Below the pieces are notes generated by a model. It searched no databases. It saw only the letters and a list, made by a program, of their open reading frames with translations, and was not told where the DNA came from. The position numbers were made by a program, and so were the translations under genes. A stretch of DNA of 64,000 bases from Psammoneis japonica (taxonomy: Eukaryota), in the NCBI GenBank assembly GCA_008632985.1, contig QPGO01000130.1:62001-126000 (forward strand), in the 5' to 3' direction. Every line of letters begins with the position of its first letter. The stretch's first letter is position 1. This document shows positions 5,008 to 55,110 of this stretch, piece by piece.

Positions 5008-5329
5008 GTTTTGTTCGCCACTAAAACCACCAAAGATGACCCTCAGGGGGGTGGAAAGTGCCGATGGAGATTGCGTCTACCGTTGACGAGTTGGTGAAAG
5101 GCTTCTTGTTGGCTTCTTTTTTTGCGGTTGCTTTGTCGCTCTGTTGGCTGGCGAAGATCACGAAAGATCTTCAATGCGCGCGATTTGCGCGGCGATTTGA
5201 ACAAAATGCATGTACGTACCGGTACGGTTTCCTGAATATCCTATCTGAAGACGAGCCCATTGCGTGCTTGTGCGCGCATGTTGCCCTTGCACGAGGATTT
5301 GGAACGTTTGCTGCTGCCCCGGGTCCGAA

Positions 5330-8030
5330 TTTGATGTGGTGGATTTTGACAATCTTTGGATGGGGTTGTTTTGGAAGTGGGTGTGTTGTGTTGGAGTGTC
5401 TTCTTGGTGTGTCCATTGGGTTGGCTTGCTGTGTGTTCATTCTTCTCTCTTTGTCCAGCAGCTGCGCCAGCAGGGTGCCTGACACACACAGCTCGCACTT
5501 GGAACAACTGCTGCACTGTCATTGTGCTGGGGGTGTGGGTTAGCTTGTTGCTGGAGTTGCAGAGTGAAAGTGCAACAGCACTTTAAATGTGGAATTTGGG
5601 TTTTGTTTCAGCCCCCAGCCATTGTTGTTCTTGTGGACTCCATTGTCAATGTCCACTTTTGGAAGAACTTGAGCATCTGACCCTTCCCACCATTTCTTGC
5701 CACATTTGTTGGCAGCCTTTTGGGGGGAAATTCAATGGTCATGTTGAAGAGCTGCAAGATCAAACAATGGTGCATTGCTGCTCAACTCATTTGCTTTCTT
5801 TTGGGCTTCTTTGTGTTCAGCTGATCCTTGAATTTCTCAAAATCACATTGCTGAACTTCAGGTTGCCATCATTGGCATGCATCCTTGGTGCTCATTTCTC
5901 ATTCTGAAAGAGAAATGGCGCCGCTTTTTAGGTCTTGTTTGGGCAACATTGTGCACTCCATCAAGAGTGGCAAGACAGATGGGAGGGTCTTCAGAGCAAA
6001 GATCAGGGCAACCCTCTCAGTCCACTCATCTGGCCAGACTGTTTGCATTTGTTGTCGCAAGCAAAACAAACAGACGGGTGAGAGAAGATGTGTCTGCAAT
6101 CCACACACAAGGAAACTCAAACTGCTTTCACCTTTTGACTCACATGGCTCCATCCAAACTGGACCATGCTTGCACCTGTTGCACTTGAGCATGGCCCACC
6201 TTGTGTGACATCACATGCCACAAAATGTGAGTCATGCCCAAACTCCATTGCACTTTTGTGTGGTGCATGAGTGCTGACATGCCCAAAAAATCAGTTGAGT
6301 TGCTCATTGCTGGCACCGCTGAAGCATGCAATGACTTGATGCAATGCAAGTTGCTGCGGTGATGTGTGATTGTTTTTAACAGTTTCTTTCCATTTTGGCA
6401 CTGTGCGAGCAACACCAATTGATGATGTGAACCAGATGTGCATGCTCCAGCAAGAAAACATTAAAGTGTTGTGTGCTTGTTTCTGGGGTTGACCTGTTGC
6501 ATTCAAAGAATTTGTTTCTGTCTGTTGCATCACACAAAGTCAATGCACAGGGTGGCTAAACTGGGTCTGCAAGGCACAACAATGATCCAATGGACCAATG
6601 CAGACAGGGCAGATTCAATGGGCTCATTGTGCATGGTTTGATTTTAAGCAAGCCCAACATGGCCTGAGAAGAGTGTGCAGAAACTTTTCATTTGAAAGTT
6701 TCTGAAATTCCCCAGTGAGTCTGCAGAAATTCTGCACCTGTGCACCAAGCAAAACATGGTGGCTCTAATGAGATTGCTTTTGTCATCAAAGGTGGAAATT
6801 TGATGCGCCATGTGTCACAGAACATGACTCAAATGGGACTCAGTTGATTGGGTCCTGACCACAAACAGGCAAAAAGTTTGTGGCCCCCCAGAAACACAAT
6901 CGCGAGAAGCATCGATGAATGGCACATGCCAGACTGCAGAGCTGAATGTTGCACATGGGATTAACAGATGTGACGCAATTGTGCACTCATGCCAAAAAAT
7001 GCACCACAATGAACAAACAACTCAGATCTGCAATCTTGTGTGAAAACAAAAATGACCCTCCTCACCAACATTTTAACGCAGAAAATGACACGGCCACAGC
7101 GACAAAAGATAAAAGCCGCTGGCATTGCTCTCACACTGCTCTGTGCCACAAAACCAAGGCATCAATCGATGTGCATTGTTGCGCAGATGTCACATTTACA
7201 CAATCTGGATCATCCACAATGAACTTGGCACTCAAATTGAAGGTGCGCTGTTGACACCAAAAATGATGCCCTGCAGAAATCCATGCAAATTCTGCACAAA
7301 AATGAAATCCCCAATCATTGGAGCTTGCACAAATGGCAATGGGCAATGCTGCACAAACAACCTCAGCAATCAACCAGCATGTCATGAGTGTGATGGACAA
7401 TGAATGACACGACCCTGTCAATTAAAGTGCCACACCACACAAAGGGCAACGACAGTGAGTGGGTCATTGTCATTGATTTGTGCAACTCCGATGGCTGAAG
7501 ATTGAGATTTTCACACTGTGGGGGCAAAAGCAAAGACACACAGGCAGACAAAAAAAGCATGACTTTTGGTCATGCATGGAGACAAAAAGCCACCGTTCTC
7601 AATGCAGCATGTTGTCAGCCACCACTCGTGCACCAGCACGGAGCAAGGTTGCCATCAAATTACCGCCGTGGGCATTGGCGGTGATTTTCTCACCCCACAG
7701 AAACCACCGCAGGGCAGTGCCAGAAAAAATGTTGAACCATTGAATGGTTGGCTGCACAGACAAGAGCCAAGAGCCCTGCAGAATTGGTGAACCATGCTGT
7801 GGTTTGGGAGGACGTGTGCAGAAATGATGCACGTGCAATTTCAGACAGAGGGTCAAACGCCAAATTGAACCAGAAAAATGAGGCTCACAATGAACAAGAT
7901 GGCAGCTGTGCAGAGACTTTTAAGAACACAGCAAACCACCAAAATAAAGCATGCATGTTGTCAAACAGAGTTCACTGCATCGACTGATGCAAAGTTGTTT
8001 CAGACATCTTGCCACCTTCTACATTTTCAA
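5330..8030. mobile_element. Unclassified degenerate repeat-derived tract (TA- and CG-depleted)
   Basis: TA and CG nearly absent with TG/CA excess; many Cys/His-rich pseudo-ORFs; no recognisable domain. Confidence 0.5.
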
Positions 8031-11000
8031 CCATTGTCTGTTGGGTTGTTTTTGGCACACTGCAAACTGGTTTGGGGCACCATGCAAGCTTTGCAATGAA
8101 AGTTTTCTCCCATCTTGACATCAAAAATCACATGGCACTTCACTTCTTGAAACCCAGGTGCCATGTTGTCTGGCTCTCCCTCACATTTTTCAAATGTGAC
8201 TTGCACGTTCTTCATCCCCATGCAAATGGCAACCCACCAAAGGGTGTTGCCATTTGCGTGATCAAGTTGAATCATCTCCTTGGTGCTCTTTGGGATTTGG
8301 GTGCCAAACTTGTGCATCCCAAGCCAATGCTTTGACTTGACCTTGGCAATGGATTGCTTGTGGTTCTCATGACGTGAGGAACCCACCAGGTGAATGCCAC
8401 CTCTCTGAGATCTTGTGTTGGATGGAGAACTCAGTGACTTGAACAGGAAAACTCTCTTTAGCATCCTTCAAATTGACCCAAGTCAGGCTCCCATCCTTCC
8501 ATTGAAGTGGGAGTTCCCATCCTTTGGCAGTCTTGCGCCTCTTCCAAATGCCTTGCTCAGTGTCAGAGAATGTGGATTCTGGAATGTCCTGTTTGTATGA
8601 TGATCAACTGTCTTGTCAAACAGGACACGCCAATTCCCATCCTTGTTGATCTGTGCAAACACGTTCATGGTGATGGTGTTGGCAGAGAGTGCAGCATGGT
8701 GTCCATCAGGATGTTCCCTCATGCATCCTCATGACAAGATGGGGTTGTTGTTGGCTGTTCCTGTTGGCAAGCCATTGGCATCTCTCAGTCTCTTTGTGAA
8801 CAGTCAAACAACTGGGGCCATTGTCATCCCTTGGAAGTGCTGCTTCCATGTTGAGATGCCTCCGCCCAGTCAGCCACCTCCAGAGAGGCTTCCTTGTCTT
8901 TCTTGTCATTGTTCTTGTTGGCCACCTCATCTGAAAACACAATGCAATCACATTCATCAAGGAACTCATCATTGTGTCCAAGGTGGTCCTTCCAGTCTTC
9001 TGCTGGACTGATTTTGTGGTCCTTGTTGTCAGGGAAGTCCTGTTCCCTCAACCGGTGCTTGATCTTGTCCTCATCAAAACTGTCAAACTTTGCCTTGTTC
9101 TCTTGTGCAGCGGCTTCTAGATTGGTGACTCATTGAATGGAAGTCCTCAAAATGATGCTGCCAGTCTGTGTTAAAACACAACATGACATGAGGCTCCCCA
9201 TTCTGCTGTGAGACACACCAAGCCACCTGCCAAGTTTCTTGTCACCAAGACCCGCATTCTCCCTGCACCAGACCCAGTCATAAAATCCAAAGTCAAGATG
9301 CTCTGAGATGTCCACAGTCTCACTGAGAACATTTTCCAGTGGCACTCCAGCATCCAAATGATGTGCTCTTGGGAATGTGTGAGACACAGTTTTGCATGTC
9401 CATGCAAATTCCACAGTCCCGCAGTTGCCACGGCACTCACTTCTTGACCATGATGCAGAACCACTTGCGCCAAACTTCACACACAACTCCCTCTGCAGGA
9501 TTCTGGTTGTGTCAATCAGGCTCACCAATGTGGTGATCAATGCCCTCCCTGCATGATGTCTCATGAACTCAGGGCCTGGTTTTGTCTGCTCCTTAGATCC
9601 ATCCATCAGGAGCCTCTCCAGCATGCCAAATTCTTGGCAGAGTGTCTTGAGAGCTTCTCCAGCCTTGCTCTTCTTGTCCACAGGATTGACTGTGGCAAAA
9701 TGCTGCTTGTTCACAAAGATCTGGGGTTCTGACAAAGTCACCCTGCCATCTGCCATGTTGAGTGCCCATTCACCCTGCAGTCCAGGTTTCATGAATGTCC
9801 AATCCACTTGATGACGCCTGCCCACAGGCATCAGTGCTGATCTCACAAGTTTCTGAGTGGTCTTCTTGAGTGTGTTTGTTGCTTGCTTGAATCCAATGCA
9901 CCATCCTTTGCTCAAGTCAGCAGCTGTCACATCGCTGTGCCACTCCTTGGACATTGGTGTCTTCTGGAGTGCCAAGTCCTCTTGTCCATCACCAATTGCA
10001 TCAGTTGCAGAGATCTGAACTTGTGATTGTGACTGCACATTGACAGCTGCTGCTGGCCTTGATTGAATTTGGTTGACACCATAAATGAATCATCTGTCCT
10101 GGCATTTCCTGGACTGAGGGTTGCTGCAGGCAGGATGAGTGCTAAACTTGTGTGTCAGATTGGTCTGGACTGTTGCAACTGACTGAATCAACTCCATTTC
10201 CTCCTCCACAGAGCGTTGAGTTCTGACAGGATGGAACTTGATGGTCTGTGAATTCCAGGGTTGCTGGGAGGTGATCTGGATTCTGGGGCACTTGTGCAGC
10301 TCCTGTTCTGCAGAGGAGTGCAAGTTGCCAAAATGACATTGGTCCCCATGACCTCAAGTGGCATCATGAATGAGTTGTCCTCTGTGAGAACATGCAATGG
10401 CAATTTAGAGCAGGGGTCATCCTGAACCTTGATGCCAAAATGCCACAGTTGGTTGGGTCAACCAACGGGTGCTCATGGATTTGACATCCATGAGCCCTCA
10501 TGGAAGACCAAAACAAATGTCAATCCCAATGTCAGTGACATCCACACCATGGCCACTGAGACTGTTGGGACACTCTTGATGGAATTGCATCCCTCATTAA
10601 AAGGTGACACATTGCACCCTCATTCAGAATGACCCAAAAGGGTAAAGATTTGACCAAAGACAGTGGTGTCCACATGCAAGTCCAGTTCAATTCATCCATG
10701 CTGCACCTGATTCATGTCATGGACATGGGTGATTTGTGTGTTGGACTGTGTCACTGAGATGCATCAAGTCAAGGCAACCGCCTCACAAACTTGTCAACAA
10801 CAACAATGTGGGTTCTCTTCAACAGATCAATGTGGCTGTCCCCCACCCCAATGCAGAATCCACAATGCAAAGTTGGTGCTGCTGCTGAGCAGAGTCCAGC
10901 TTGGCTGTCATTTCTGACACCCTTTGCACCCATTGCTGCATCCTCCAAATGCATCCCCCCGGCATTGTTTCCATCTTGTCTGTCACCCATTGAATCACCA

Positions 11001-12872
11001 TCACCTGAGTCAGTGGTGGCATTGGTGTTCAAGGAGGAGATTTTACGGTTTGCTTCCTTGAGCTGTGACAACAGCTTTTGATTCTTCTTCTTAAGCAACT
11101 TCATGGATGCAGCATGGCGTTTGGGGTTTTTAGGTTGCTTGGCAATTCCCAGAGGCATGCGCCTGTCGATGACCTTCTGTTTATCCTCTTTGCTCAACTG
11201 GCACCAATTCTTGTGGCATCTGGCGTTGATGGATCCGTTGGCATTGTAGATGGTGCCACCCTCTCTTCCTCCTCCTGAAGCAACTGTGGCAATCACACGA
11301 CAGTGTGCAATCGTCTCTGGAAGGGTGGCAACTTTTGCAGCAAGATGGTCAGCCGCTGTGGTGAATGCAATGCATCCTCCAAACTTGTTTTGCACCTTCA
11401 AATTTCAACCACTGCTTGCAGCTGTTGGTGCTGCACTTCTCAAAAAGCATGCACAGTTTCTGGGCCTCCGTCTTTGGCTCATTGTTCTCATCTAAGATGT
11501 GGAACATTTCTTGGAGCTTGTTCATGAACAATTCGAATGGCACAGAATGCTCACTCTTGCAGTGGAGAGCTTTCTCTCCAAGCTCTCAGCTTCAGAAATG
11601 TGATGGGAGGAATTTCCCTTTCCCTGGCAGTGGTCACACAGTGCTTGGCAATCCACAGTTCTGCTTGCTCTTGTGGTCTTTCAACCGCTGTTCACTTGGG
11701 GTCCCAGCAGCAAGGGACTTGATCAGTGAGTGGACCGTGTGAGCATCCGCTTCAAAATGTGGACCTTGGAGTTGTGACCATCAGGCTCAGGCACATTGTT
11801 CTGACAAATGCAACACACCAGTGGTGCACCAGATGCTCCCAGCACAATGCCAAGCATGTTCATCAAGCTGGTGCACCATTTCACCCAACCCTTCTTGCTC
11901 TCCAACATCATGGGTGATGCCTCTTTACTTGGAGAGTCTGCTGTGGCCTTGGTCTGAGAGCAAATCTCAGCACAACTGAGTGCCATCTGGAGCACAGTGC
12001 AGAAAGTCACCTGGTCAAGCCCATCAAGAACAGGGTTTTCACTCACACAACCAAAGCCTTGCACCCAATGGATGAGAGCCTTGAGATGATGACTGTGGGC
12101 CAATCCAAAATGAACGCACCCTTCAGTGACCGTCCTCCTCACACATGATGATGCAAGAGAGTCAATGTCTTCCTCTTGAGGTCTTCTAAGTCATCAAATG
12201 ATGCAAAGTCCACCATGAGCAAAGCTTGATGGGCTGGATCAACAAATCTGATCCAATCAAGAGCTGTCTCAATTAGATCCAGAGGGGCAGCCGCTTGGTG
12301 ACACCTGTGCCAGTGGGCAAACAGAGTTGTGTGAGAAAGCATGTGGTAAAATGACACTTCTTTTTTGTGCCAATGACAACACATGGCCATTAGAAGCATG
12401 GAGACTGGTCAAGTCTCCTCACTGCTTGTGCATGCACTGATGCCAGGTGATGAACAATCATCACACACCCTTCAATTGACCAGCATTCGTTGTCACCACC
12501 CTGCCATTGTGGCGGTGCGATCATCTCCATTTTGGTTGTTTGTCATTTTTCGTTAAACTGAATGTGAGTGATGACTTGGCTCTGACAAAGCGAGTAAATC
12601 CAACTGCCCTGATGGGCTCAGCTGCTCACAGTCTCAGCACAACAATGTGAGTGCAGCCAACAAGATGCATCCAGGCCCATCACAACTGCAAACAGTCCCA
12701 ACAAGTGAGACCATTTCATGGTCATCATTGGTTTTCCTCTTTGACCATGTCACAGTCCCACCACTTCAACTTGTGAAGCACATGAGTCAATCTGTGACAC
12801 AGTGGATTTATGCTCAAAAGGGAGCACCATCAGGTGTGTTGTGCATGCATGATGTTCAAAATTGCTCATGAC
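8030..12872 (-). mobile_element. Old, degenerate, 3'-truncated Ty1/Copia (CoDi-like) retrotransposon
   Basis: gag HLKALIHWVQ (11723-12142) and FTTAADHLAAKV; protease IELDLHVDTTVFG (~10650-10700); integrase LLMDGSKEQ and DISEHLDFGFYDWVW...LGRWLGVSH (9130-10038); RT start MKNVQVTF...PGFQEVKCHVIFDVKMGENF, broken off at ~8050. gctcatgac at 12864 may be a mutated half-tRNA-iMet PBS. Confidence 0.85.
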
Positions 12873-13650
12873 ATCCTTGGGGAAGGGTGCATGCCACACT
12901 GTTGAGTGGCACAGTTTGAGGTGGCTGGTGGTGTGGCTTTGTCCAATGGCTGCAGAACATTGTCAATTGTGTGGAGCAGCACCCAATGAATGTTTTGGTG
13001 TGCAGCTTTGGATCCTTGTGCTGCTCCGGATGATGGGTGGCAGGACAGCCAGCAGTGCACCCTGTTGGGCTGGTGGTTGGCACACTCCAGCTCTGGGTGG
13101 GACCTTGCACTGCTCCTGAACTGTGAACTGCTGTGAATCAACAGTTTTTTGGATTGCACCACATGTTGTGCATGCATGTTCCTACGTGACATGTTGGTGG
13201 AATTTTGCATCATTTTTCGGTGCAGTCATCAGGCAATCCATTTAACAACTTTTGACATTTTTTCTTCTGCGCCATTCTGAATTGTCTTGTTAAGAATGGC
13301 ACAGGGCAGGCAGGCAGATTGTAAATGCACCACAAGCTTGGTCATTTGTTTCATGTTGTCAAAGACAAAAACATGTGCATTGACCGAGCACAAACTGCAG
13401 AGCTCACACACAGAATTCCATGGGCAAATGTCACACAGAATTCCACCCAGGGCTGGAACACGTTGGTTGTGATGCTGGCTGATGCGCCACAGGTGCCACC
13501 CGCCCACCGGGAGCATTGGGTGTTTTTTGTCCCTGTTGCAGTTGTTCAGCTGGTGGGCAACAGGGTGAATGGGTGTGGGCGGTGCCCGCTGTGGGACATT
13601 GGCTTGTGCTGGCAGCGCTCCGCCGCGGGGCACTCCGTTTGGTGCCTGCA
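12873..13650. mobile_element. Unclassified TA/CG-depleted tract flanking the old Copia
   Basis: Same dinucleotide signature; may be the other half of the 5330-8030 element. Confidence 0.4.
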
Positions 13651-13940
13651 TGTTCAACGTAATCGTTGAAAAAAAAAACACAAGAAAGAGTCTGCCAGGG
13701 TGCATGCTTGTCAGGAAATCGGCAAGATAAACTGGATTCATGGGGACGATGATTTGCGGTTTGCGGAAGTAACAGCGGATCCGCCCATCATACTACTAGT
13801 CCAAAGGGCTCGCCTTCGTCTGTTGAGGGTCCTATCAACCTCCCGACGTTGTCACTTCTTGTTTTCATCTTTGTTGGGTCAGGGTCTACGAATATAATGA
13901 CGCATGCTACTTGTACACTTTGCACGACAATAGAAATAGA

Positions 13941-16900
13941 CTAATTCAATGAAAATACATGTGCAGAGCCCGACTCCTCATTCCCATTGCTGTTGCTCCA
14001 TCGAGCACCAACTCCAATCACAGTTCCGTTTGCCACCAAGGACACGGCAAATCCGAATGTGTCGAATGCAGTCTCACCACTCAACTTTTCACCCACCTGA
14101 ATCCATTCACTTGCGTCGGTGTCGTACCGAAAGATCTCAACTTGGCCGACGCTACTCAATCCGTTGACGTGGCGGAAAGAACTCCCAATGGCAACGTCAT
14201 TTCCAGTTCCACTCAAAGACAAGGAACCGAAATTATCGTTCCTTTGCTGACTGCTTAATGTTTGGCCACGCTGTGTCCACGTCCAGCTGGCTGGGTCATA
14301 CTCAAAGACTGAAACTCTTCCTATCCTCATCGTGTCTGCAGGATCGACAGGTGCACCAACCGCAATGACCACACCATCATCACTGAGAGACACCGATCGC
14401 CCAAGCTCACCCCAACTAATCGCACCATTGATTGGATCACCCAACGGCTCCCAATTTGACGCAGTAGAATTATACTCATAAACCAACACCTGGCCAGTTC
14501 TGGTTCCACCAAAATCATTTCCAAACGCTCCAACGCCAACAATTGTTCCCAAGCGATTCAACGAAACAGACCCACCAAAGAAATCCAACTCGACTTTGCC
14601 CAAAAGACGCCCCCCAAGCTGTTCCCATGATGATGTACCACGATTTAATCGAAACAGAAGCACCGACCCAGAAAAGATTCCATTCTGCGTGGTATCGTAA
14701 ATAGCTCCAACGGCAAGTATATCTCCAGCGCCAGCAATAGAAACGGAGTAGCCAAATAATATACCACTAGCTTGTCCGTCAATGCCACTTCCAAGCTGGA
14801 CCCAACTATCTAGGATGTCGTTGTACTCGTACACTTGAACGCGCCCGGCATTCTGACCGGCATTGGCGTTAGACCTGGCTCCTACAGCCAATATAGTGCC
14901 GTTGTCACTTAATGAAAGAGAACCACCAAAGCCATCACCATTGGCTAGTCCAATCAGATCTTGGCCCATCGGCATCCAATTGCTGGTGTTTTGATGAAAT
15001 CTCAAAACTGAAACATAACCGGGACCGGTATTTTGGGCTGCCCCCACCGCCATGACACCGCCGTCACGTGACAAGGAAATTGAGTCTCCGAAATGATCAA
15101 ATGACGCCTTGCCACTAAAGACTTGGCCCTGTGGCTTCCATTCTCCAGGAACAATATTTGCAGGCGCAGGCGTGATTGTTGGGGGCACGGTCGGTCTTCT
15201 AGTTGGAGCAGGGGTGGGCAAAACAGGATTAACGGTGAACATGTATACCGATCCCGAATCCTCGCCATTGACATCACGTCCCACAGCCCCAACTCCCACA
15301 ACTCTCCCGTTTGCCGACAACGAGACCGAGGATCCAAAATTATCGAACTTTCGCTCGCCATCGATGCGGTTTCCGGCCCGCAACCATCGCTTTTTTTCCA
15401 TGTTGTATTGAAAGATTGCAACCTGACCCGCATTTTCGACACTATGTTCACCGTACCAGCGACTTCCAACTGCAAGCACACTACCAGTTCCACTCAAAGC
15501 CACTGATGAACCGAACTGATCATTTCGCTGCAGACTCACAAGAGTTCCGCCACGTTGTGTCCATGACTTCGTCGTGCGATCATACGCATAAACAAACACC
15601 CTTCCAACCAATGTATCGGCAATAGAATCTCCCGGCGCAGCTACCGCAACGACAAATCCGCTGTCGTCAACAGAAACAGAACGCCCGAACCAACCATCGA
15701 GTTCTTGCCCGTTGATTGGGTCACCTAGTGGTTCCCACAACGTCGAAGAATTGAGTTCGTAAACAGAAACCTGACCTGCATTGTTTCTAACCGAGTCATT
15801 GCCAAATGCTCCAATACCAACAATTGTCCCTGAGCGATTCAAGGAAACTGATATACCAAACTGATCATTAGGAGCTTGACCAATAAGCGTCTGTCCAAGC
15901 TGGGTCCACGATGATGTGCTGCGGTTGTATTGAAACACTCGAACGGATCCAGAATTCTCACCCTTGTCTGTGTTCTCCAAATAAGCCCCTACCGCGAGGA
16001 CAGCGCCGCTGTCCGACAGAGAAACGGAAAAACCACTACCATCCCCAGCTGCCTGGCCGACAATGCTATTGCCAAGTTGGACCCAACTATCTGCTGTCTT
16101 GTTGAACTCGTACACTTGCACAACACCTGCACTGTGTCCACCGCTATTCCTTTCGTCTGATCCTACCGCGAGTATCAAGCCATCTCCATTTAATGATACC
16201 GACACTCCAAATGTGCCAAAGACTGTTCTTCCTACCAAATCTTCGCCCACAGTTGTCCACTCCTCCGTGTCAGGGTCGATCCTAAAAACGGAAACATAAC
16301 CGGGACGAGGACCTATGGTTTGCTCTGCTCCCACTGCCACGATGTTACCATCGCGAGAGACGGTGATAGATCCACCAAAATAATCTGATGAAGCCCTGCC
16401 ATTCAGAACTTGTCCGAATGGGCTCCATTCATCGAAAGAAAGTTGAGAAGGAGCAAAAGTGCTGGTAGGGAAGATAGTAGATTGCGGAGATGTCGGAGCT
16501 GGACTCCTTGATGGCACTGCTGTGCCGCTGTCAAAAATGAAAGGAGCTTGAAACACATATACAGATCCTGATTCGTCACCGTTGTCGCGGTTACCAGGTG
16601 CTCCAACTCCGACCAAGGTGCCGTCTCCTGACAACGACAACGACGATCCAAATGCACCAGATTCGGCCTCACCAATTAAGCTTTCACCAAATTGAATCCA
16701 ACTTTTTGTAATGGCATTGTAATTAAAGAGTGTCACCTGGCCTACTTCTGTCAACCTGTTGACATTATTTGCGTTGGCATCATAACGAGGACTTCCAACG
16801 GCCAATACATTTCCATTGCTGCTCAAAGACACGGACAGTCCAAAAAACTCCCCTGGCTGCTGCGAAATAAGGGTTTCACCTCGGCTTGTCCATTCTGACG

Positions 16901-19900
16901 TGGCATGGTCATGGACAAGCACCGAAACTCTTCCGGTATGAGTGTTGGTAAAGCGATATCCGGGTCCGCCGACTGCGATTATCATTCCACTGTCATCAAG
17001 ACACACAGATGAACCAAATCCACCTTCTTCGACTTGTCCATTGGTTGGATCTCCCAGTGGTTCCCATGAGGATGAGGGCAGATCATATTGAAACACCGAC
17101 ACCTGACCCGCGTCATATAGACCGCCCGAATCCTTTCCAGGTGCTCCGATGGCAACAATCGTACCAGAGCTGCTCAAGGAAATGGACTCTCCAAATAAGT
17201 CACCAGGGGCTTCACCAATTAGTGTCTGCCCAAGTTGATTCCATACTCGTTCGCCTCTATTGTATTGAAAGACGCGGACCGAACCAGTGATGAAGCCATT
17301 ATCAGTGTCATCATACAAAGCTCCAACGGCCAGAATGTCGCCCGAATCTGAAAGAGACACAGAAACACCAAACTGATCGTCACCATCTTTCCCATCAATG
17401 TCATTGCCAAGTTGGATCCAACGATCTGACTCATCGACGTACTCGTATTCGTAAACTCGCACATGCCCCGCGTCAAGTCCAGCACTGTCGTTCTCGCGTG
17501 CTCCGATGGCGACAATGGTGCCATTACCGTTCAATGAAAGTGAGCTGCCAAAGGCATCTTGACTGGCTTGGCCAACTAAGTCTTTACCAATGGCCGTCCA
17601 CTCTTGGTTGTCTTGATTCCATTGCAATACCGACACGTAACCGGGATTGGGAGAAGACTGCCCAGCTCCGAATGCCATTACATGGCCGTCACGTGACAAG
17701 GATATGGAGTCTCCAACATGATCAAATGAAGCCTTGCCAGTAAGGACTTGCCCGACTGGTGCCCAGGATGAACGTGTTGGACTTATGGTTGCCCCTGGAG
17801 ACAGCGTAGGAGGCCGAGTAGGCGGCTTAGTAAGTGGGTGCTCATCGGGTGACACGATGAAACTGACGTTCTCACGGGAAGCGAATTGTCCCCCAGCCGC
17901 CAAAAGATTTCCTCCTGTAGATGCACCATAATATATTTCGTAATATCCTCCGCAACAAAGCCCATCACCAAAGGAGTCCTCTATTGTAAACACGCACTTC
18001 GCCCCTTCGGTTATCCCCATGACGGTCATATTGGTCAGAGTGAACGGTGATTCAGTTAGAAGAAGTCCCTTCACAAATGGAACCTCGTCACAAAATAAGG
18101 ATATCGTTGTCTCCATGTAGCTGCCATCCAGCTGAATAGAAATAAAGACGGCCACTGTACCGGATGCCACGAAAAAGGAAAAAATTGACTGAGAAAAGAA
18201 CTCGCCCAGAAGATGCATTTGCGAAGTGTCGATAATGACTGGGGTATCTTCAGTGGCTCCTTCGCCATAATAGACTCGAAAGTTCTCCAAGTCCTGCACA
18301 CTTGACACTGACAACAAACAGAGACTACCTTCAGGAACGACAAACGTTTGAGTTACGTTTGCCCCTTGGAACTCAGTGGCGCCGTAACTTCCTTCCGTCA
18401 CATTTCCGATAGTTACTCCACCGCATTCGAGTAACCAAGCAAGGTATTCAGGGCTGTTGTCGAGGTCGAGAGCGAGTGTCAAAGGGACCGGCGGTCCTGG
18501 AGTGACAGATGGTGCTGCGGAAATAGTCGGAGTTGGTAATGGGGTGGTGGTTGTACCCTCTAGTTGAAACACCCGAACTTGCCCTTCGTCAGGCTGCTCG
18601 TTATTGTGACGCGGTGCGCCTATGGCCACGCGACTTCCATTGTGCGAAAGGCTTATGGTTCGTCCCGAATGGTCCCAATCAGAGGCCCCTTCAATCGGTG
18701 TCCCAATTGTTGTCCAAGTTTCTCCACGCAACTCGTACAGCCTCACAACACCACGGCCCTTGAGGTCACCGTTGAGTGATTCGGCCAAGACAGACACAGC
18801 TAACCGCGTACCATCTCGAGCAAGTCTTGAAACAATGGGATACTTTTCAGACTGCAAGCCGGCACCGATGGCAAATTGCCCTTCGTGATTATCCACTAGC
18901 TCCAGCCCAAACTGAAAAATGTTGACGGTGTTTCCTATTTGGATCCATTCGTTCCTGGACTCTGCGTACCGATATACTTTCACATTTCCGTCGTTGTCTC
19001 CCAAAGTGAAAATGTCCTCACTTGAGCCTTGGAAATTTGAACTAACTGCAATCATTGTGCCGTCGGCCGAGATAGACACTCCAGATCCGGCCTGTTCTCC
19101 TTGCTCACCCAAAGTGTCTTCGCCTTCTCCAACATCTCCTTCGATATCTTGTCCTAGTTTTATCCACGAATCAGTTTCTTCTTGATACTCAAACACTCTG
19201 ACGTGCCCAGTATAAACGGCCCATTCGACACCAGCCTTTCCCAGATTATCCGGAGCGCCAATGACTATTCTATATCCATCTGCGCTGAGATCCACACTAG
19301 TGCCGAATTTGTCTCGCCGCGCTTCACCTACAAAATCAGTAGATCCCAGGTCTTTCCATCGAGATGAGGTACTGTCAAATATGAGTACCAAAACATAATT
19401 GCCTCGTGAAGATCCAACGGCAAGAATGTTTCCATCTTCGGAGAGTGCCATAGAACTACTGTCATAGCCGTCGAGGGGAAGTGGTACACTTTCATCGTCT
19501 CGGTATTCGAAATCGTCATCATATTCATTGGGGCGTTCATAAACGTCATCGTCGGGAGGCCTGAACCCACCGATCATGTCGCCTTTTGATTTTCCGAATA
19601 TCGGTTCACCTTTAGGATCCCATGCCCCCGGAGAAACTTCTGAGTAAACTTGGACCATTCCTGCTTTTTCGTGCTTTTCGCTGTTATGTGGGACGCCAAT
19701 TGCCAAGACGGTGCCGCTGTCAGATAAAACGATGTGGTCAACAAAACCCGATGGTACTAGGATTTCCCCAGACTGTATCCATAAGTCATCTTCAACACTA
19801 AAGTCGAACACCTGAACTTTCTTATGGTATGGAGAAGCAGCCACCAACCGATTTCCATCTGAAGAGAGCTCTACAGCCCACCCAAAGTACCGTTGCCCTC

Positions 19901-21370
19901 GTGGTCCAGATTCAATTGGGTCATCATTGTTTACAATGGTTTGACCGATTTGTTCAAGGACCAATCTTGTGGGTGCCGGTGTAGCTGCAGGAGGAGCAGT
20001 TTCTTCTGGACCAAACGCAGAAGAAGGTGGCTCATCGTTATCACTTCCTGACTTGACGGCAAACGCAACGGAAATAATGACGCCACCAACGAGGAAAATC
20101 AACCCGATAAGGATGATGCGACTTTTTCTTGATTTAAAGACATCCCACCATTTTGCTTGAGTAGCTACAGCAATGGAGCCACCGCCGTCACTTTGATTTC
20201 GGGGGTCGGAAGCCACGGACTGGCCATGAACCGGCGTGGCGGTCGGCAAAACTTCTGGCGCGGGTGGTTCTTGATGCTGCACTGTGACGGGCGCCTCGTA
20301 ATCATGGAGTGGGGGCGAATCAGTACCTTGTTCTCTCAATGGTGCTTGTAGAACGACATCATCAAGTGCATCCGCGTTATTTGCGCCATTCCCTTTACTT
20401 TCCCTCCAACGGCTACGAGCATCGGCTGCTTGATTCTCAGTAGAGGAGGGCTCGACGGGGCTTGAATCTTTGTTTGCTTTCCATCTATTCCTCGCACTGT
20501 GCCCGGTATTTTCTCGGGAAAAGAGGGCGTCAGCGGCTGCAGCTTTACGCGAAAGCCAGTTCTTTCTTGCACCATTTTCGCACGTTCTATTTTCGACCAA
20601 CTGATCGGGAGAATGGTCTTGAGGTGTTTCCTTGTCTTTGCTGCTCGAGAGTTTCTTGTGTCACTTCCGTAGATTGTATTACTATTTGGCGCTTCTCTTC
20701 GCGTACCACTCTCGCGTTGACGTTCTTTCTTGTCATTGATGGTTCGAGGGTTCCTTGCGCTATTTCCGTAGATGGTACTCCTTGGCACTTCTCTTAAGGT
20801 ACCACTCTCGCGTTGACGTTCTTTCTTGTCTTTGACTGTTTGGGGGTTTCGAGCGCTATTGCCATAGATGGTACTCGTTGGCGCTTCTCTTAAGGTACCA
20901 CTCTCGCGTTGACGTTCTTTCCTGTCATTGATTGTTTGGGGGTTTCGTGCGCTATTACCGTAGATGGTACTCGTTGGCATTTCGCTAAAGGTACCACTCT
21001 CGCATTGACGTTCTTTCTTGTCTTTGATTGTTTGGGGGGTTCTTGCGCCATTACCATAGATGGTACTCGTTGGCACTTCTCTTAAGGTACCACTCTCGCG
21101 TTTATGTTCTTTCTTGTCCTTGAATGTTTGGGGGTTTCTTGCTCTATTTCCATAGATGGTGCTCGTAGGCCTCAAAGTACCACCCTCGCGTTGTTTCTTC
21201 TTTTCTCCGGATGTCACCTTTGTCTCCTCCTCCGAGAGAACGATTGGAGGCAGAGTCATTGGAGATAATTCTGGATGCTCATCACTGTGCGCTCTGTCGT
21301 CGCTTGTCAGTGATTGACGTGGCATTGGTGGTTGGGTGGGTTCATCGGCTTCGGCCTTGCCACGGACCAT
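13941..21370 (-). CDS. Large type II membrane protein with four FG-GAP/integrin-alpha-like beta-propellers (~2470 aa; one-base frameshift at ~20640)
   Basis: 2219-aa ORF with about 28 repeats of FG.SVSLS..G..(L/V)A(V/I)GA..G.V.V(Y/F)...W..G; TM helix IILIGLIFLVGGVIISVAFAV; PT-rich linkers; DSFGDGLCC module. The upstream ORF 20336..21370 joins if one base is restored in the repeat (GCA GC AAA GAC AAG vs consensus ACA ATC AAA GAC AAG). Confidence 0.85.
20645..21195 (-). repeat. Coding tandem repeat, ~96-bp/32-aa unit, about 5-6 copies
   Basis: RESGTLRE.PTSTIYGN.ARNPQT.KDKKERQ repeated. Confidence 0.9.
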
Positions 21371-21809
21371 TCTGTCAATATGAACACGTTGTTGTTATTC
21401 GGTTCCTTCCAAAAACTTCGCTGGAATAACGCTGAATAGCTCAACGACGAAAGAATTCAAATGCCTGGACCCTCACAGCGAGTATGCAATCAAACGCCAG
21501 CTACAGGAAGAAGGAAGAAGGAAGAAGGCAGTGAGTGATGAATGAGAGCGACAAAAAGATACGAACGCGAAAACAGAAGATCAGCGTTTTATGCTCGAGA
21601 TATTCTGACCGTTATATAACCGTTGATAGAAAGGAGCTGGCGTTGTCGTGAACGACGGTGTACTGTAAATGCAGTACAGTACCGTACCGTACGTATGACA
21701 TCGAAGCAAGACTGAATTTCACAGTCATGAGCGTTAAATTTAGAGATAAAAGAAGTTCGTTCCTGTCCGTTGAGAAAGGGGGAGTGTTTGGCCCGCGCAT
21801 CACCTCCAA

Positions 21810-23200
21810 TGCAATCCCTCCGCACCGGCACTCTCGAGAGGAGTGTGTGTCACAGCCACCATCAATTTTCAGGTGGAATGATGAGACTCAAGAACTGCTG
21901 GAAATTCCTCGAGCAGAGCTTGCAGCACTGCCTGGTGGTTTTGCACTGCTGCAGCTCACTGGTCTCTTTTCCCATGAGCACACATGTTTTTGTGCACTGT
22001 GTTCACACCATGCAAAATGGTGTGAATGACAAACGCCAGATGCAACATGACAACATGTTGTCTGTTTGTCAATGATTGGTGACAAGCTAATTTTCGCACA
22101 GTTTGCTCCTTTCTGTGCAGCATCATCACAGAAATGAGCTCTTTTTCACTCTGCATTCTTTGGCTTGCAACAACAACAGAAAATTGTTTTTTTTTGCGCA
22201 CTTGCTGTCTCGCGCAACAACAACAAAACACTCTGTTTGCTTTGGCGGTGCTGTGCAATGGGAGCCCTCTTTGGTTTCATGAAAGAGAAAAATTTCTTGC
22301 TTGTTCTCTTTTGCACCATGTTTCCCTCCTGCCTCAACTCGCTGTGCCATTTTGTGGGCTGGTGTGGTGTCAGAGTTCGTGGCTGTTGCAGTGTGCTGTT
22401 GCTCAAAGACCAAAAGCAAAAAAAACATGATTGCAAAAGTCACCGAGGCACCTGAGTTTCACACCACAAAGATGCAACATTTTTTCCAAAAAATGATGTT
22501 TGACTTGATGAAACATCCGTCAACTGGGGTTTCATGATCTCAACTTTTCCAGCAAGAACAAAAACAAGTGTGCCAATTTTTCATTGGAGCAAAGAGGGTT
22601 GAGCACCATGCAGAGTCAAGGGGGTGCCCTGCTTTGTGGAAACACAACAAACATGGCAGACAAAAGTGGAAACTTGTTTGGCAAAAGCCAATGCTTGAAC
22701 CATCATGTTTTGGCCATGGTTGATGAAGTGCACAGGAACAAAAGTTGGCAGTTCAATGAGAAGTCTGGCAACCTGTTCTGCGCACTCTAAAACAGTGCAA
22801 AAAATTGAAGAGGCAAAGGAGTGGGGAAGGCTGCCATGAAGGAGAAACAGGATCAGCATGTGCAATCGCTGCTGCTTGGTTCAAAAACAACAACATCTCA
22901 AACAAATGGCAAAAGAAATTAGAGACACAATGTGAGAGGGATCCAACCTGACACAATAAAATGTGTGCAGCAACTCATGTTTGTTCCAGACATCATCCAA
23001 AAAAGTGAGCAGACCTCTGCAGAGATCTGTTCAGAGAAACGTCCAGATGTCCACATGTCAATGAGTGTGGCCAAGAGAGCAGGGGCTGCTGACAATTGCC
23101 GGTGTGACCCAAATGTCGGTGGCAGAGCACAACTCACACCATGACCTCAACAATGCCATTTTTGCTTGGTTTCTATGTTGTCAAGCTTGCAAAGATGGTT
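21810..23200. mobile_element. Unclassified degenerate TA/CG-depleted repeat tract
   Basis: Abrupt loss of TA and CG relative to both flanks; fragmentary ORFs. Confidence 0.5.
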
Positions 23201-23633
23201 GCATCTAGCACTGCGATGCTACAAAGATGTACAAGACCGCATTCATAACATCTGGTGTAGACGCCACCTGTTGGTTCAGGCAGAAGAGGCGTCAAGGGGA
23301 CGTGGAGACGTGCAATGGTTAACCAGTTTTGGAGGCGACGGCGGCGAAGCAAATGGAAAAAGCTTTCGACCAGTTTAATGTACGTTTGAAATAAAAAAGA
23401 AAGTGCAGCACTTCTATAGCTACGCAATGCAACCGATGGGTAAAGAAGCACAGCCTTGGCGGGAACTGATGACCTGACACATCGTCTTCTCCAATGCCCT
23501 TGTCTCTTTCTACCGCCAAAGACTGATTCAATGCTGCTTCAAGGTGTGGCTGAATCATGTCAGGCATAAGACTACCGCCACGAGAAAGATCGCCAGTGAC
23601 AACACCCCGTACTTCCCTCTTTAGCTTTATCCT

Positions 23634-26210: not shown

Positions 26211-29200
26211 CTATCCACCTTTGTGAACTCGAACAAAGCTTTCCAAGCTCGGGTCAATAGCTGGAATGTCTTGCCTCCCCCGGTGCTCTTCGACGTACTG
26301 GATTAGCTTGTCCTTCAATGACAGCGCATCCCAATCTGATCGGTCTTGTCGTCCACCTTTCAAGCTCTTTATGAGGTCTGGCCACAGTATCTCCACCAAA
26401 TAATATGCCGGGTCCTCCGTCCGAGAATTGCAACAATTGATCTCCTTCACAGCTGGAGCGAACTTATTATCCACTTTTTGTATTTTCCAAAGATATGGGA
26501 GCACAACTAAGTTCCCCTTGCTCCGACGCATCATGAAGGTATTAAGCTCCATGACACAGTAATCACTCTCTCGAAACCGCGGTGACAGCAAAACCACAGC
26601 ATGCGAAGCACTGTGAGCAGGTTCCATTAGAGAACGCATCTTGTCGTCACCGGTTTTCATGCTATCATCGTCAAAGAAAGCGGTGAGGCCCAATATTTCT
26701 GACAGGAACCAATGCGTAGGACGAGCAATAGTCTCTTTGGTATCGATGCCTCTATGCGACAAAAACACATACGGATCGCCACCAAGGTTGACCTGCCAAA
26801 CACTGCTTGGAATTGTCACCCCAGCCATTGACAACTCTCCCACATCTGTCTCGACACCGTCTAACAGTGCTTGCGTGTACAAGTTAGAGACGTTTCGTTC
26901 ACCAGCAGTACTCGGCGAGACGTGGTTGCCGTCGTGGCCGACTTCTTGAGCTTGATAAAAATGGGAAAGACGACACATCATCTGATTCAGCAGCACCTTG
27001 TGCCTCGCTGCCTTTCCGACCTTGCTGTATATGGCTTCTCCCTTCGTACAAACCACCCGAAAATCAACGTTTTTTCTGCACATTGGGCAAAAATGCGAAC
27101 TCATTCTCCTCTCCGGATTGGTCACTTTCGACCATCCAAACAAGTGGGAATCTTGTCTTCTACCGGCCCTAATGCAGCAATGACAAGCGAGCACCACGTC
27201 ATACTGCAAACCTGCAAAGTGATCCGTCACTTCATCACTAACAAAGCTAACCGCACCGTTCAATAGGCCCCACGTTTCCTCCCAAAGCACGTCATCCTTC
27301 GGATATCGTACGGAAAACGCCAAGTAAGGCTCGCCGTCTTTTTTCTCAACAAGCTCTGACCGGATGCATCGATCCTTCTCGGCAAAAACAATCGCGCCAT
27401 TCAGCCATGCACGTACACAATTCCCATGTACATGGGTTGCAGCAGCAAAATGTGCAGTGAGACTCGTAGGGCAGCCCTCGTACATTCTCAAGCGCAACTC
27501 TTGTTCCTCTTGGCCGTCTGGTACTTGCTCCGGCCACAAATCCTCCCAATCTGTCGGTATTTCTTTCTGTAAACGGAAGAGGACAACGGGAAGAACATCA
27601 GCAGTGGCTCGGGAACTGGTGTTCTTCTTTGTAGAAGAGTCCGGATTAGGTGGAGAAGCAAATATGACGTCTGAATCAAGAAGCATCTGCAGAATCCTTT
27701 GGTAGTCTCCTTGAGCAATGTTGGAGTCACGCCATAAAAAGGGAAGAATCAGTGCGTCCAGCTCTCCGCTACGTGTAAGATCTGTCAGTCCATCAATTAT
27801 ATCTTGGCGTAGTCCAATTTTCTTTCTCTTGACAAAACTCTTAACTTCCTTGTCAAACTCGGGTGATTTTATTTTTTCGAGCGTCAAAGTGTGGTCTATG
27901 AGAGGTCTGATCAAGTCGGTTACAAACGACGGTTGCAAATACGCCAGCCCAGCGTCAACAAAAATACCCCCCCGGGCTTCAAGAAGTCCTAGTGCATCGC
28001 CGAACGTAGTGTTGTCAGCCAAGGGGGCGTGCAAGAAACGGAATTGATTCCACAATGAGTTGAGAGTCGCCACTGAACAGTAAGGTCCTTTTGCAGATAG
28101 ATCCGTTTCGCCGCCGTCTGCAGTGGTCTTCATATTCCCAATCTCACCCAACGGGATAGCATCATCCGAACTTGCTACGGAGAAAAGCGCTTTTTCATCA
28201 GCATCTGCACCGCACTGAAGAATAGCACCGAAGAATTTCCATAGATCCTGCCATGACTTTGGGATTAGCGTACCGACACTTGACAACCTCGGCTCAACAT
28301 GATCCTGTGTGTGCCTAAATATGGTACTGCTCACATCTTCCCTCGCGCGAGCAATGGCACTTTCACTCGTTACGGATACTCCCAGGACAATGGGTAGGAT
28401 CCGGAGCAGCGGTGGCTTCTTTTTCTTCGAGCCCTCTGGAATGACACGACCATAAAGAGCTTCCTCTCGATCAGCGGCGGCATCCCGCCATGCTTGAAGC
28501 TGCCCGTGGACTTTATCTTCTAGCCATTGTTTTCGTTCCGACTCGTCCGACACAAGATCAACCTTAGACAGGACAAGTTGTACCACGGCACCCGGTGCCC
28601 TCGCCTGTAGTAGCACAAGAAAGCGCTGCACTACTTCTTCATAGTAGTCGCCATGTGCCTTGTCCGCCGCCACGATAAGTAAAAAGAGTGACGACGCTGT
28701 CATGAATGGTGCCTGCCCGACAGCATAGTCTTGCTGACCGCCGCAGTCATAGAGCATCAGTGTATTTGGATCATCGCTGAGTCCTTCGGGTCCTTCTATC
28801 TGCACAGGTTCCACATTGAGATAGATGGTCCGTTCCTCCTCACCCTTTGTGCGCGCCGGGAAACGGCCGGCAACGGCATTTCGTAGGCTCGTCTTTCCTG
28901 CTTCCCCATCCCCTACGAGCACCGTCTTGAGCTGTCTGGATATGGTTGCTTCCCCTTTATCCACGGCTTCGAAGTAACGAGAAATCGCCTGGAGGCCCTG
29001 CCTGGCAATCTCGAGCGGGGGTTCCAGCAGTGGATTACCGTCCACATCAAACTCGCACATTCCCTCCAGTTTAACAAAGGAGCGTGGAAGTCTTGTAATG
29101 GAATTGTTTTCGAGATTAAGTATCGTCAACGTTGTTTTCATTTCTAGTGTTTTTCCAATGGCCACGGCACCCTCGTATCCAATGGAATTGTAGCCGAGAT

Positions 29201-29747: not shown

Positions 29748-29989
29748 GTTTTTGACAACGAGACTTGTTTCCAAGCAATCCAATCCCAGGCAAGCAGCGC
29801 CAGTGTCTTTTTCGTTTCACTCGATTTTATTTGCCAATTGCGCGAAGATGCGAGTCGTCCGTCCGTCACATTTGCTGGTTGCGCAGCCGCTTCTTTGCGA
29901 TGAAACTGCTCGAATGGAGCAAAAAATGACGATGCATTCAACGAGAAGAGACAGTGTCAATGATGGGGATGTGAGGGACAGTGGCACTC

Positions 29990-30341
29990 GTAAAATGGCA
30001 CAGCAATGGCGGCACAGTGCGGTGTGACAGTCAAGAGATCAAGAGTGCCGCCGGGGCATGGTGTGTTGAAAGTGTGAAAACATGCAAGATGAAGATGCAC
30101 AAAATCGAAAATGCCGGAGGAGAGACCGGCAGAAAAAAAGAAAAATGAAAGAAAGGAAGAATCTGCTCCAGCTGGCTGGCTGGAGGGCAAGTGTTTCTTT
30201 TAATTGTCGCTCCCGCCCAACCAAACTGCCCCTGCTGGTCTGGATGCAGCAAGTGCAGAAAGCAACAGGAGGGGTGTCTTGGCCACCACACACAACAAAA
30301 ATGGCACATTTTCTCCACAGAGAATGGTGGAAATGTGTGGT
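29990..30341. mobile_element. Left part of an older TA-depleted element split by the Gypsy insertion
   Basis: TA-poor sequence outside the TSD; same character resumes at 42552. Confidence 0.45.
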
Positions 30342-30345
30342 GGAG

Positions 30346-30775
30346 TGCCCTGTGCATGCACTGGGCGCTGAAAAGAAGATGTGTTGTGACTTTGTCGTTG
30401 TGAAAATTGTGAGCTAGTTTAGAGTAGAGAAAGTGGGATCGTGCGAATGGGGAATCTTGCCAAAATCCCATTCGCTCGCATTTGGATGTGTCAAATCGAT
30501 CGTGCACTCGCATTGTGGATCATGCGAATCAAGCCATCACGTGCTGTGCACGAGTGATGTCATCATGTGGAATCAGGCTGCCATCGTGGGCCAGACGACG
30601 GGCCAGTGTGCTTCACACGGATGCTCTCTCAGCATCCTTCTGGAATTGCCCAAGACCTGGAGCCACGCCCTCCTGTGGTCGTGCTTCCCAGGTGCGTGTC
30701 AACAACACTGCGTTGCCACGTGCAAGAGGCTCATGCACGGTCTTGCCGTGTTGTCCAGCAGCGAGGCATGCTGCG
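30346..30775 (-). repeat. Gypsy 3' LTR
   Basis: Aligns with 42117-42547; adjacent to the PPT. Confidence 0.9.
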
Positions 30776-30858
30776 CACTCCCCCATGATCAGGGCCGCCA
30801 AGTGACAGGATGTCTTGCTGGTGACAGGGTGCAATCTGCCGCAGATTGCAGGCATCTG

Positions 30859-42547: not shown

Positions 42548-42551
42548 GGAG

Positions 42552-47047: not shown

Positions 47048-47149
47048 GCTGATTCTTCCCTTGCTGGGTGGCTTTGCTGCTCTTCACAACCGTCAATTTT
47101 GTTGGCCTCACACGTTACAACACCTCCTTGTTCAGCTTCCTCCGATGTG

Positions 47150-55030: not shown

Positions 55031-55110
55031 CACGAATAGACTTTTCCAGGGACGAATCTGTGAATTCTCCATGTCTCCGCTAAATCGCTTCAGGGGAAAT
55101 CATCGGACAC

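Follow-up and report, generated by a model that had tools for sequence, protein, structure and literature searches.

Near-complete loss of TpA from retrotransposon tracts in a diatom-related genome and the flanking bases of the sites that survive

A genome defense that destroys TpA dinucleotides was first reported in 2026, in a preprint on a single chlorarachniophyte alga, Bigelowiella natans (Mettrop et al. 2026; bioRxiv 10.64898/2026.01.13.699255). According to its main text, 230 of the 231 new mutations in mutation-accumulation lines were A>G or T>C changes, all at TpA and in two integrated viral regions; the hypermutation ran at ~1000 times background. Its authors also found reverse transcriptase and transposase domains to be overrepresented among coding sequences poor in TpA, and they put forward an ADAT2-like deaminase as the agent. 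Here, we analyze a 64,000-base window of the Psammoneis japonica assembly (GenBank GCA_008632985.1, contig QPGO01000130.1, positions 62,001 to 126,000; positions below are counted from the first base of this window), in which tracts carrying copia- and gypsy-type retroelement DNA have been stripped of nearly all TpA. The analysis centers on the TpA sites left in one 8321-base stretch of such DNA, 5330–13650 (the focal stretch).

Two other kinds of system bear comparison. Repeat-induced point mutation (RIP) of ascomycete fungi is, like the loss described here, a DNA-level, transition-only and dinucleotide-specific process that kills transposable elements, leaving sharply bounded deviant tracts and sparing genes. 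Deaminase-fold enzymes, on the other side, typically read the base 5′ of their target, a required 5′ T being common among them; TadA and ADAT2-ADAT3 address an adenine that is preceded by U or T (U33-A34 in tRNA). We know of no natural TadA/ADAT2 member that strips transposons. According to a review (PMC13109818), a YAC context is preferred by some TadA variants when they act on adenines in DNA. Amphioxus ADAT2, the only natural ADAT2 known to edit DNA, prefers GAA for adenine and TCG for cytosine (PMC10354150).

The focal stretch retains 46 TpA, compared to ~466 expected for an unmutated element of such a kind, and its observed-to-expected ratio (O/E) for TpA is 0.04–0.16 per kb, compared to 0.5–0.67 in the flanking genes. 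A sequence-only reading of this DNA had noted that the survivors mostly read TTA or TAA, with a mere handful having neither a 5′ T nor a 3′ A. Indeed, a 5′ T or a 3′ A is present at 41 of the 46 sites, 14 of them TTAA and 27 one-sided (TTAB or VTAA, where B is any base except A and V any base except T), and just five are VTAB (8020 cTAc, 8596 gTAt, 9118 cTAg, 11247 gTAg and 13183 cTAc), four of which that reading had listed. The non-tract part of the window holds 68 TTAA, 436 one-sided and 842 VTAB sites, from which the focal 14/27/5 differs with a chi-square p of 1.5e-17, showing that a non-random, context-defined subset survives. A better baseline is provided by related copia loci that occur unmutated in metagenomes (68 loci with normal TpA, 366,523 bases), with each context normalized by its pyrimidine-purine class (TA+TG+CA+CG), which stays constant under TA>TG/CA and CG>TG/CA changes; against it, the focal contexts deviate with p=4e-18. 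The same bias was found when all seven stripped tracts of the window were pooled (156 TpA left of ~1673, same order of contexts, p=2e-28), and it was less pronounced in the younger tracts, whose depletion is limited to TpA (9 TTAA, 38 one-sided and 46 VTAB; p=0.02). The context bias of the surviving TpA is thus confirmed.

Survival in the focal stretch, estimated with the copia-locus baseline, falls from 0.60 at TTAA through 0.33 at CTAA/TTAG, 0.15 at GTAA/TTAC and 0.11 at ATAA/TTAT (6 of ~57) to 0.06 at CTAG, 0.04 at CTAC/GTAG and 0.01 at ATAC/GTAT (1 of ~73), with no site left at ATAG/CTAT, ATAT (0 of ~28) or GTAC. These values contradict the earlier suggestion that A/T tracts as such are refractory, since ATAT, ATAC/GTAT and ATAA/TTAT are among the contexts that were most thoroughly destroyed. 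VTAB, proposed at the same time as the target, describes the sensitive class fairly well to a first approximation, but the target is better written in another form, as developed below.

The stripped sequence is also found in contigs built independently from one public run of one sample, possibly the sample of the assembly itself; differences between these contigs and the window carry no date. The contigs reproduce the stripped sequence at a word depth of 45–60, compared to ~62 in single-copy flanks, with 0–12 differences per contig (none in a 423-nt contig, three in a 978-nt contig), and 110 of the 134 difference places tallied by kind are transitions (run X1). We regard the read contigs as partial support that the depletion is real.

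As read from sequence comparison, three independent lines show that the loss ran from TA to TG or CA, on both strands. The first is a copia element inserted within a gypsy element, each with a pair of long terminal repeats (LTRs) that were identical when made. The gypsy LTRs lie at 30345–30774 and 42116–42546 and the copia LTRs at 34959–35235 and 41597–41873, all on the minus strand. Identity within the gypsy pair is 91% in the four-letter code and 99.8% in a purine/pyrimidine code; for the copia pair, the corresponding values are 93.5% and 100%. The gypsy LTRs differ at 11 sites with TG in one copy and CA in the other, two TA/CA sites, nine sites with CG opposite TG or CA and five others; the copia LTRs differ at five TG/CA sites, three sites with TA opposite TG or CA, four CG sites and one other. 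Both pairs summed thus give 16 TG versus CA, 5 TA versus TG/CA, 13 CG versus TG/CA and 6 other differences, i.e., 21 TA-derived differences compared to 6 outside pyrimidine-purine steps. Where one LTR reads TG and its partner CA, an ancestral TA was hit independently in each copy; such sites are not explained by double hits on CpG, because only 10–16% of CpG changed per copy.

The second line is the reading frame of the nested copia element (35185–40770, minus strand; RVT_2), open yet dead. It contains 0.5% tyrosine, compared to 3.0–5.0% in 120 of 120 homologues among the matches listed. Tyrosine is shared by at least 70% of 40 homologues at 44 columns; there, the frame has cysteine at 22, histidine at 13, tyrosine at 5 and phenylalanine at 4, i.e., cysteine or histidine in 35 of 44, where at former tyrosine codons cysteine reports A>G on the coding strand and histidine T>C. 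Other conserved columns are largely intact (arginine kept in 56 of 59, histidine in 31 of 33, tryptophan in 23 of 25), and ~60 RNase H residues have been deleted. The frame has stayed open over its 1862 codons because TA>TG/CA changes make no stop codon. Related copia loci from metagenomes have a TpA O/E of 0.47–0.99 in 79 of 80 cases. The remaining locus (L073), a metagenome contig fragment of 1025 bases, has 2 TpA, with O/E values of 0.04 for TpA and 1.5 for TG/CA; it is stripped, so that the process leaves traces in environmental assemblies as well.

The same direction is seen in a pair of paralogues 3.8 kb apart, one inside a tract and stripped of TpA and CpG (49050–49620), the other TpA-normal (52885–53470). 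The 26 TA sites of the normal copy read CA at 8, TG at 6 and something else at 12 positions in the tract copy, and its CG sites read CA at 12, TG at 10, CG at 1 and something else at 11. The pair has diverged, with 83% identity in the purine/pyrimidine code. The normal copy overlaps an open reading frame (ORF; 52920–53555) with a weak ricin-B lectin match. Stripping of this lectin-like paralogue, an exception to the confinement to selfish DNA, shows that non-retroelement DNA lying in a tract is hit as well.

The focal stretch itself seems to be a mosaic, with pieces of at least two unrelated elements stripped alike. No LTR pair was found for it in searches in either the four-letter or the purine/pyrimidine code. 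Within it, only 8078–10754 (minus strand) can be assigned, as a copia-type (RVT_2) polyprotein fragment of a family distinct from that at 35185–40770; tblastn with the family consensus aligns residues 1–863 of ~1350, with stops inside, and the fragment ends within the reverse transcriptase (RT). The homologues of the ORF at 9133–10089 are copia polyproteins of ~1400 residues, one of them from Fragilaria crotonensis. At conserved columns of this fragment, which provides the third line, tyrosine is kept in 1 of 18 (6 histidine, 4 phenylalanine, 3 cysteine), arginine in 13 of 41 (4 tryptophan, 3 glutamine, 3 histidine, 2 cysteine, 1 stop) and tryptophan in 13 of 16. Two segments, 5293–5623 and 12906–13567, show summed read-contig depths of 2100 and 3400, compared to a flank value of ~60, which marks them as parts of highly abundant repeats, possibly the LTRs of a large family.

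The LTR pairs also yield a rate, under the assumption that concordant double hits equal discordant ones. Per LTR copy, ~92% of TpA sites have changed in the gypsy and ~77% in the copia pair, compared to 16% and 10% of CpG and 0.8% and 0.24% of other sites. TpA thus changed ~320 times (gypsy) and ~600 times (copia) as fast as other LTR sites and ~15 times as fast as CpG. TG and CA are about equally common across the tracts, runs tests on TG and CA revealed no clustering beyond the range of unmutated elements, and cysteine and histidine outcomes alternate freely along the copia frame, which together indicate that sites were hit singly on either strand. Long single-strand processive events were considered and dropped, as the runs tests stayed within the unmutated range.

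How the flanking bases act can be described by a four-parameter model that treats the two strands as independent and gives each A a probability of escape according to the base on its 3′ side. Its fit extends over all ten tetranucleotide classes (deviance p=0.30 in the focal stretch and 0.19 over all tracts), while uniform survival is rejected (p=3e-13 and 3e-23, respectively). The fitted escape in the focal stretch is 0.86 with a 3′ A, 0.31 with G, 0.13 with C and 0.09 with T; for all tracts, the values are 0.62, 0.42, 0.19 and 0.11. The values for C and T are not separable. From survival alone, an effect of the base that follows the A cannot be told from one of the base that precedes the T on that strand; the products discriminate between the two.

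As a baseline for the products, 40 unmutated related elements replaced host genes, which had given a poor mass balance and contradictory strand shares. With this baseline, the TA lost in each asymmetric context is approximately matched by the TG and CA gained. At ATAA, the gain is 29.8 in ACAA versus 5.7 in ATGA; at GTAA, 28.5 in GCAA versus 8.5 in GTGA; at ATAG, 25.6 in ACAG versus 2.1 in ATGG; and at CTAC, 36.8 in CTGC versus 21.6 in CCAC. At sites flanked by purines on both sides, 76% of the products come from the strand that reads TAY (bootstrap 95% confidence interval [CI] 0.62–0.89); the copia element by itself gives a share of 66%, and the remaining sequence one of 82%. The split between cysteine and histidine at the tyrosine codons of the copia frame favors the same rule over its mirror image by 4.5 log-likelihood units. 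The base at +2 matters in addition: within tracts, TA/(TA+TG) is 0.093 when it is A, compared to ~0.035 otherwise (p=6e-18), and the most resistant two-base contexts are TAAA (0.17) and TAGA (0.13), with TA-CG (0.10) and TA-AT (0.08) intermediate and most others at or below 0.06. An A is therefore protected when a purine follows it on its own strand, equivalent to a pyrimidine 5′ of the T on the opposite strand, with A stronger than G and a +2 A adding to the effect. The target is thus better written as 5′-T-A-Y on the mutated strand, with TAA(A) and TAGA refractory and the two strands judged separately. The sequence-only reading had seen an enzyme-like fingerprint in the survivors; a two-strand model that fits ten classes, and products that reveal the strand that was hit, bear this out as to the fingerprint, while the enzyme and its identity are what we infer.

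Based on these results, we suggest that dead retrotransposon DNA in the window has probably been brought close to saturation by an element-confined DNA mutator that changes A:T to G:C at TpA only, with the survivors reflecting its sequence preference. Such a mutator would act on either strand, one site at a time. A +1 G would approximately halve its rate relative to C, and a +1 A would nearly block it, more so when followed by a +2 A. TTAA would survive best because both of its targets are poor, with CTAA/TTAG next, and ATAT, GTAC, ATAC and ATAG, offering two good targets each, would vanish. The agent is most likely a deaminase-fold enzyme that converts adenine to hypoxanthine in DNA; as in a TadA/ADAT2-like footprint, a T precedes the target adenine at all inferred changes. 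A scan of window ORFs against Pfam gave no match to a deaminase family. The mutator might act on integrated copies over many generations, serving as a genome defense.

Several observations weigh against this reading. The ancestral counts behind the flank rule are estimates, obtained either from host genes or from elements that are related but not the same, and the numbers are small; the host-gene baseline is noisy and partly opposite in outcome (at GTAA, GTGA +18 versus GCAA +7.5), and the relative rates that different contexts yield do not agree fully with one another. The tyrosine-codon data do not separate the rule from a plain 50:50 choice of strand (log-likelihood -23.8 versus -24.3). Of eight single differences between TA and a product, counted by hand in the LTRs and read contigs, five fit the rule and three do not. 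The flank context may stem from lesion repair instead of targeting, and double-stranded complementary DNA (cDNA) could also be hit on both strands before integration. The GAA preference of amphioxus ADAT2, as given in the source cited above, does not match the TAY found here. Finally, two stretches of ~0.9–1.0 kb each, with borders sharp to a few bases, have normal TpA within stripped elements. One, in the gypsy element (33094–34101, minus strand; TpA O/E 0.96), covers the native protease region, whose reading frame continues that of the stripped flanks; alignments of homologous polyproteins run through both of its borders unbroken, and it is bounded by in-frame TGA codons. The other (40704–41596) is a leader between the start of the copia ORF and the copia 5′ LTR and showed no similarity to the 80 related loci. 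These stretches may be gene conversion tracts, the result of chimeric assembly or regions of local protection.

The same strand-symmetric data would also result if thymine were attacked, with a TET/JBP-type oxidase or another enzyme marking the T of 5′-R-T-A in silenced elements and the resulting 5-hydroxymethyl- or 5-formyl-uracil mispairing with G to give T>C. All our results are compatible with this alternative, as T-A-Y on one strand is R-T-A on the other and the sequence cannot tell the two apart. Moreover, TpA-preferring thymine modification occurs in dinoflagellates and kinetoplastids, and 5-formyluracil promotes A:T>G:C changes. On the other hand, base J in telomere repeats is known from T-T-A and C-T-A, the very contexts that resist loss in the tracts, and the authors of the Bigelowiella study favor adenine deamination, by homology only. 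We consider an attack on thymine unlikely, although it is the closest competitor of adenine deamination.

It is less probable still that the mutator hits every TpA alike and that the bias arose later, through repair that works better in TTAA and CTAA contexts or through renewed creation of TA. Survival alone cannot separate targeting from repair, and the focal stretch is old enough for new TA to have arisen from its 1927 TG/CA. Four of its surviving TA differ in read contigs (A>G at 7198; T>C at 8459, 10082 and 10406) and are thus still changing; together with swaps between CA and TG at 5870–5871, 7170–7171 and 8928–8929, these differences indicate that copies or haplotypes are still diverging exactly at such sites. 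That the sites had been newly created, an alternative to survival raised along with the first observation, is nonetheless rejected for creation at a uniform rate. Uniform creation from the tract's own TG and CA predicts 3.2 TTAA, 18.3 one-sided and 24.5 VTAB, compared to the 14/27/5 observed (p=1e-12). Three TpA are kept in both LTRs of a pair and were thus already there at insertion; they are one TTAG and two CTAA, the latter both in the copia pair. The five tyrosine codons retained at conserved columns of the copia frame are likewise ancestral, and three of them have a 5′ T. At least some of the surviving TpA, as judged from these comparisons, is therefore ancestral. In addition, the product strand follows the 3′ neighbor of the A, so that repair would need the same strand specificity as the mutator itself.

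Changes made before integration, either in RNA by an ADAR-like editor and fixed by reverse transcription or in cDNA by an APOBEC-like one, would account for tracts that end sharply at element borders and for the fact that all identifiable targets are retroelements. However, editing of RNA fixes A>G on the sense strand only and is excluded, because no T>C could then arise on that strand, while T>C is seen in 13 of 35 changed tyrosine codons and TG is about as frequent as CA. For cDNA as for RNA, the focal stretch would have to be explained as a mosaic in which unrelated pieces were stripped alike, the lectin-like paralogue was stripped too, and loss of 77–92% of TA per copy in one passage would lack precedent; the Bigelowiella signature, according to the preprint, arises in integrated DNA viruses during vegetative growth. 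We therefore regard action before integration as very improbable and retain a mutator of integrated DNA. Scarcely credible is a depletion that is unreal or adaptive, i.e., an error of base calling or consensus where TpA is modified (modified motifs can mislead a long-read consensus, and the read set may come from the assembly's own sample, but the independently built contigs carry the stripped sequence) or TpA avoidance by living elements, which is excluded by the lost conserved tyrosines, the RNase H deletion, the independent divergence of the LTRs and the TA kept in relatives.

CpG has been lost as well, within the window only inside TpA-stripped tracts. Five nested segments (5327–13460, 21836–23213, 42535–43181, 47931–52018 and 62106–63006) are additionally depleted in CpG, with an O/E of 0.07–0.25. 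The surviving CpG also depends on context, with a survival of ~0.09 for TCGA, TCGT/ACGA and TCGG/CCGA compared to 0.39 for GCGC (p=1e-4), an effect opposite in sense to that seen for TpA. A single T-preferring deaminase responsible for both losses was considered, as TCG is the most depleted CpG context, and was rejected: TC outside CpG is not depleted, and decay of methylated CpG was therefore retained for this part. CpG loss is a separate, slower process, likely deamination of methylated CpG. Such 5-methylcytosine decay accounts for nested loss of CpG to TpG and CpA and for the CG/TG and CG/CA differences between LTRs, but, unlike the mutator proposed here, it cannot remove TpA.

Across the window, a two-state segmentation of the dinucleotide profiles delineates seven TpA-depleted tracts that sum to 29,577 of the 64,000 bases (46%), with TpA O/E of 0.02–0.16, TpG and CpA raised up to 1.4–2.2, and borders sharp to within tens of bases; genes lying among them have a TpA O/E of 0.5–0.67. 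Retroelement (copia and gypsy) domains are found in the tracts, and the genes alongside are spared. The tract that contains the focal stretch (5243–13727, 8485 bases), a mosaic of dead retroelement pieces, holds 47 TA, 103 CG, 1015 TG and 940 CA, and its edges can be seen in the positions of successive TA (5237 and 5242, then 5541; 13322, then 13660 and 13728). A tract at 21748–23173 is depleted in both TpA and CpG (4 TA and 23 CG in 1426 bases). Two tracts have kept their CpG: 29680–33093, which comprises the 3′ part of the gypsy element (RT, RNase H, integrase and LTR; Pfam domains RVT_1 at 32592–33197 and RT_RNaseH, Integrase_H2C2 and rve at 30862–32736) and ~650 bp beyond its LTR, and 34102–40703, which comprises the gypsy gag part and the body of the nested copia (41 TA and 483 CG in 6602 bases). 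The tract at 41822–43786 includes copia LTR and gypsy LTR sequence and the older, CpG-depleted piece 42535–43181. The tract at 46217–52101, CpG-depleted from 47931 on, contains the mutated paralogue, and the last tract (62201–64000) continues past the end of the window.

The genes of the window are long, intron-poor and eukaryotic, and their nearest named homologues are from diatoms. The Fragilaria transposon homologue mentioned above is one of these. An FG-GAP repeat protein of 2239 codons (13941–20660, minus strand) and an LRR-Roc-TIR protein (26214–29816, minus strand; with 84-bp tandem repeats at 29096–29646) have unbroken frames and normal TpA; TpA depletion sets in at 29680, a position that still lies within the upstream end of the LRR-Roc-TIR frame, ~650 bases beyond the gypsy LTR. 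An RBR ligase is also encoded. Successive ORFs at 54990–59308 (plus strand) with UvrB-like helicase, UvrB interaction and C-terminal domains, followed by GIY-YIG and UvrC RNase H-like domains, look like a bacterial-type UvrB/UvrC fusion gene in a eukaryote. Relatives of it occur in marine metagenomes and a Pseudo-nitzschia transcriptome; for the UvrC part, the nearest named homologue is a Pseudo-nitzschia arenysensis protein with 49% identity, and unnamed matches reach 60%.

The same signature, near saturation in LTR retrotransposons of a diatom-related genome, suggests that destruction of TpA may be widespread in marine algae. The flank rule provides a fingerprint with which candidate deaminases or thymine-modifying enzymes can be tested, and the 231 published de novo mutations of Bigelowiella could confirm or refute it. 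We put forward, tentatively and with less confidence than the mutator itself, that an alga of the diatom lineage possesses a natural, chromatin-targeted DNA adenine deaminase with a strict 5′-T-A-Y preference, an A-to-I counterpart of fungal RIP that erases retrotransposons while other sites change by less than 1%; together with Bigelowiella, it might represent an old defense of the whole stramenopile-alveolate-rhizarian (SAR) group, with an enzyme identifiable by its four-base footprint. A natural DNA adenine deaminase, if it exists, would be relevant to base editing. There are practical consequences, too: no stop codons are created, so that dead elements keep very long frames and are called as genes, and in homology work stripped tracts align only when transitions are ignored.

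Compared with fungal RIP, the chemistry is reversed. RIP deaminates cytosine and raises the TpA content by changing CpA to TpA; in the stripped tracts, it is CpA and TpG that are enriched, at the expense of TpA. RIP also needs a duplication and hits both copies, whereas only 49050–49620 of the paralogue pair is mutated, which argues against a simple duplication trigger, the test being weak for a pair as diverged as this one. The T-A-Y context resembles the YAC preference that the review cited above gives for some TadA variants; TadA, ADAT2-ADAT3 and the editors derived from them act on tRNA or on Cas9-exposed single strands, unlike the mutator of the window.

In the full-text literature covered, with most subscription journals outside its scope, only the Bigelowiella preprint reports the signature, and no TpA-specific loss in diatom transposons came up. 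The main text of the preprint contains no flanking-base or CpG analysis, and its supplements may bear on the rule; it is the present window that supplies the T-A-Y rule, the effect of the +2 base and the evidence from LTRs, and the flank rule is, as far as checked, new. On the evidence of that main text, the two cases differ in host, Bigelowiella being a chlorarachniophyte with a different background TpA frequency and the nearest named homologues of the window's genes being from diatoms, and in target, giant-virus and virophage inserts that are still TpA-rich (Rho 0.45) compared to LTR retrotransposons near saturation. They share almost exclusive A>G and T>C change at TpA, to TpG or CpA depending on the strand, confinement to foreign or integrated DNA, loss of TpA with gain of CpA and TpG, and a rate that is ~1000 times background there and 300–600 times here by LTR comparison. 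We therefore suggest that the hypermutation of the window is of the same kind as that of Bigelowiella, probably in a new lineage.

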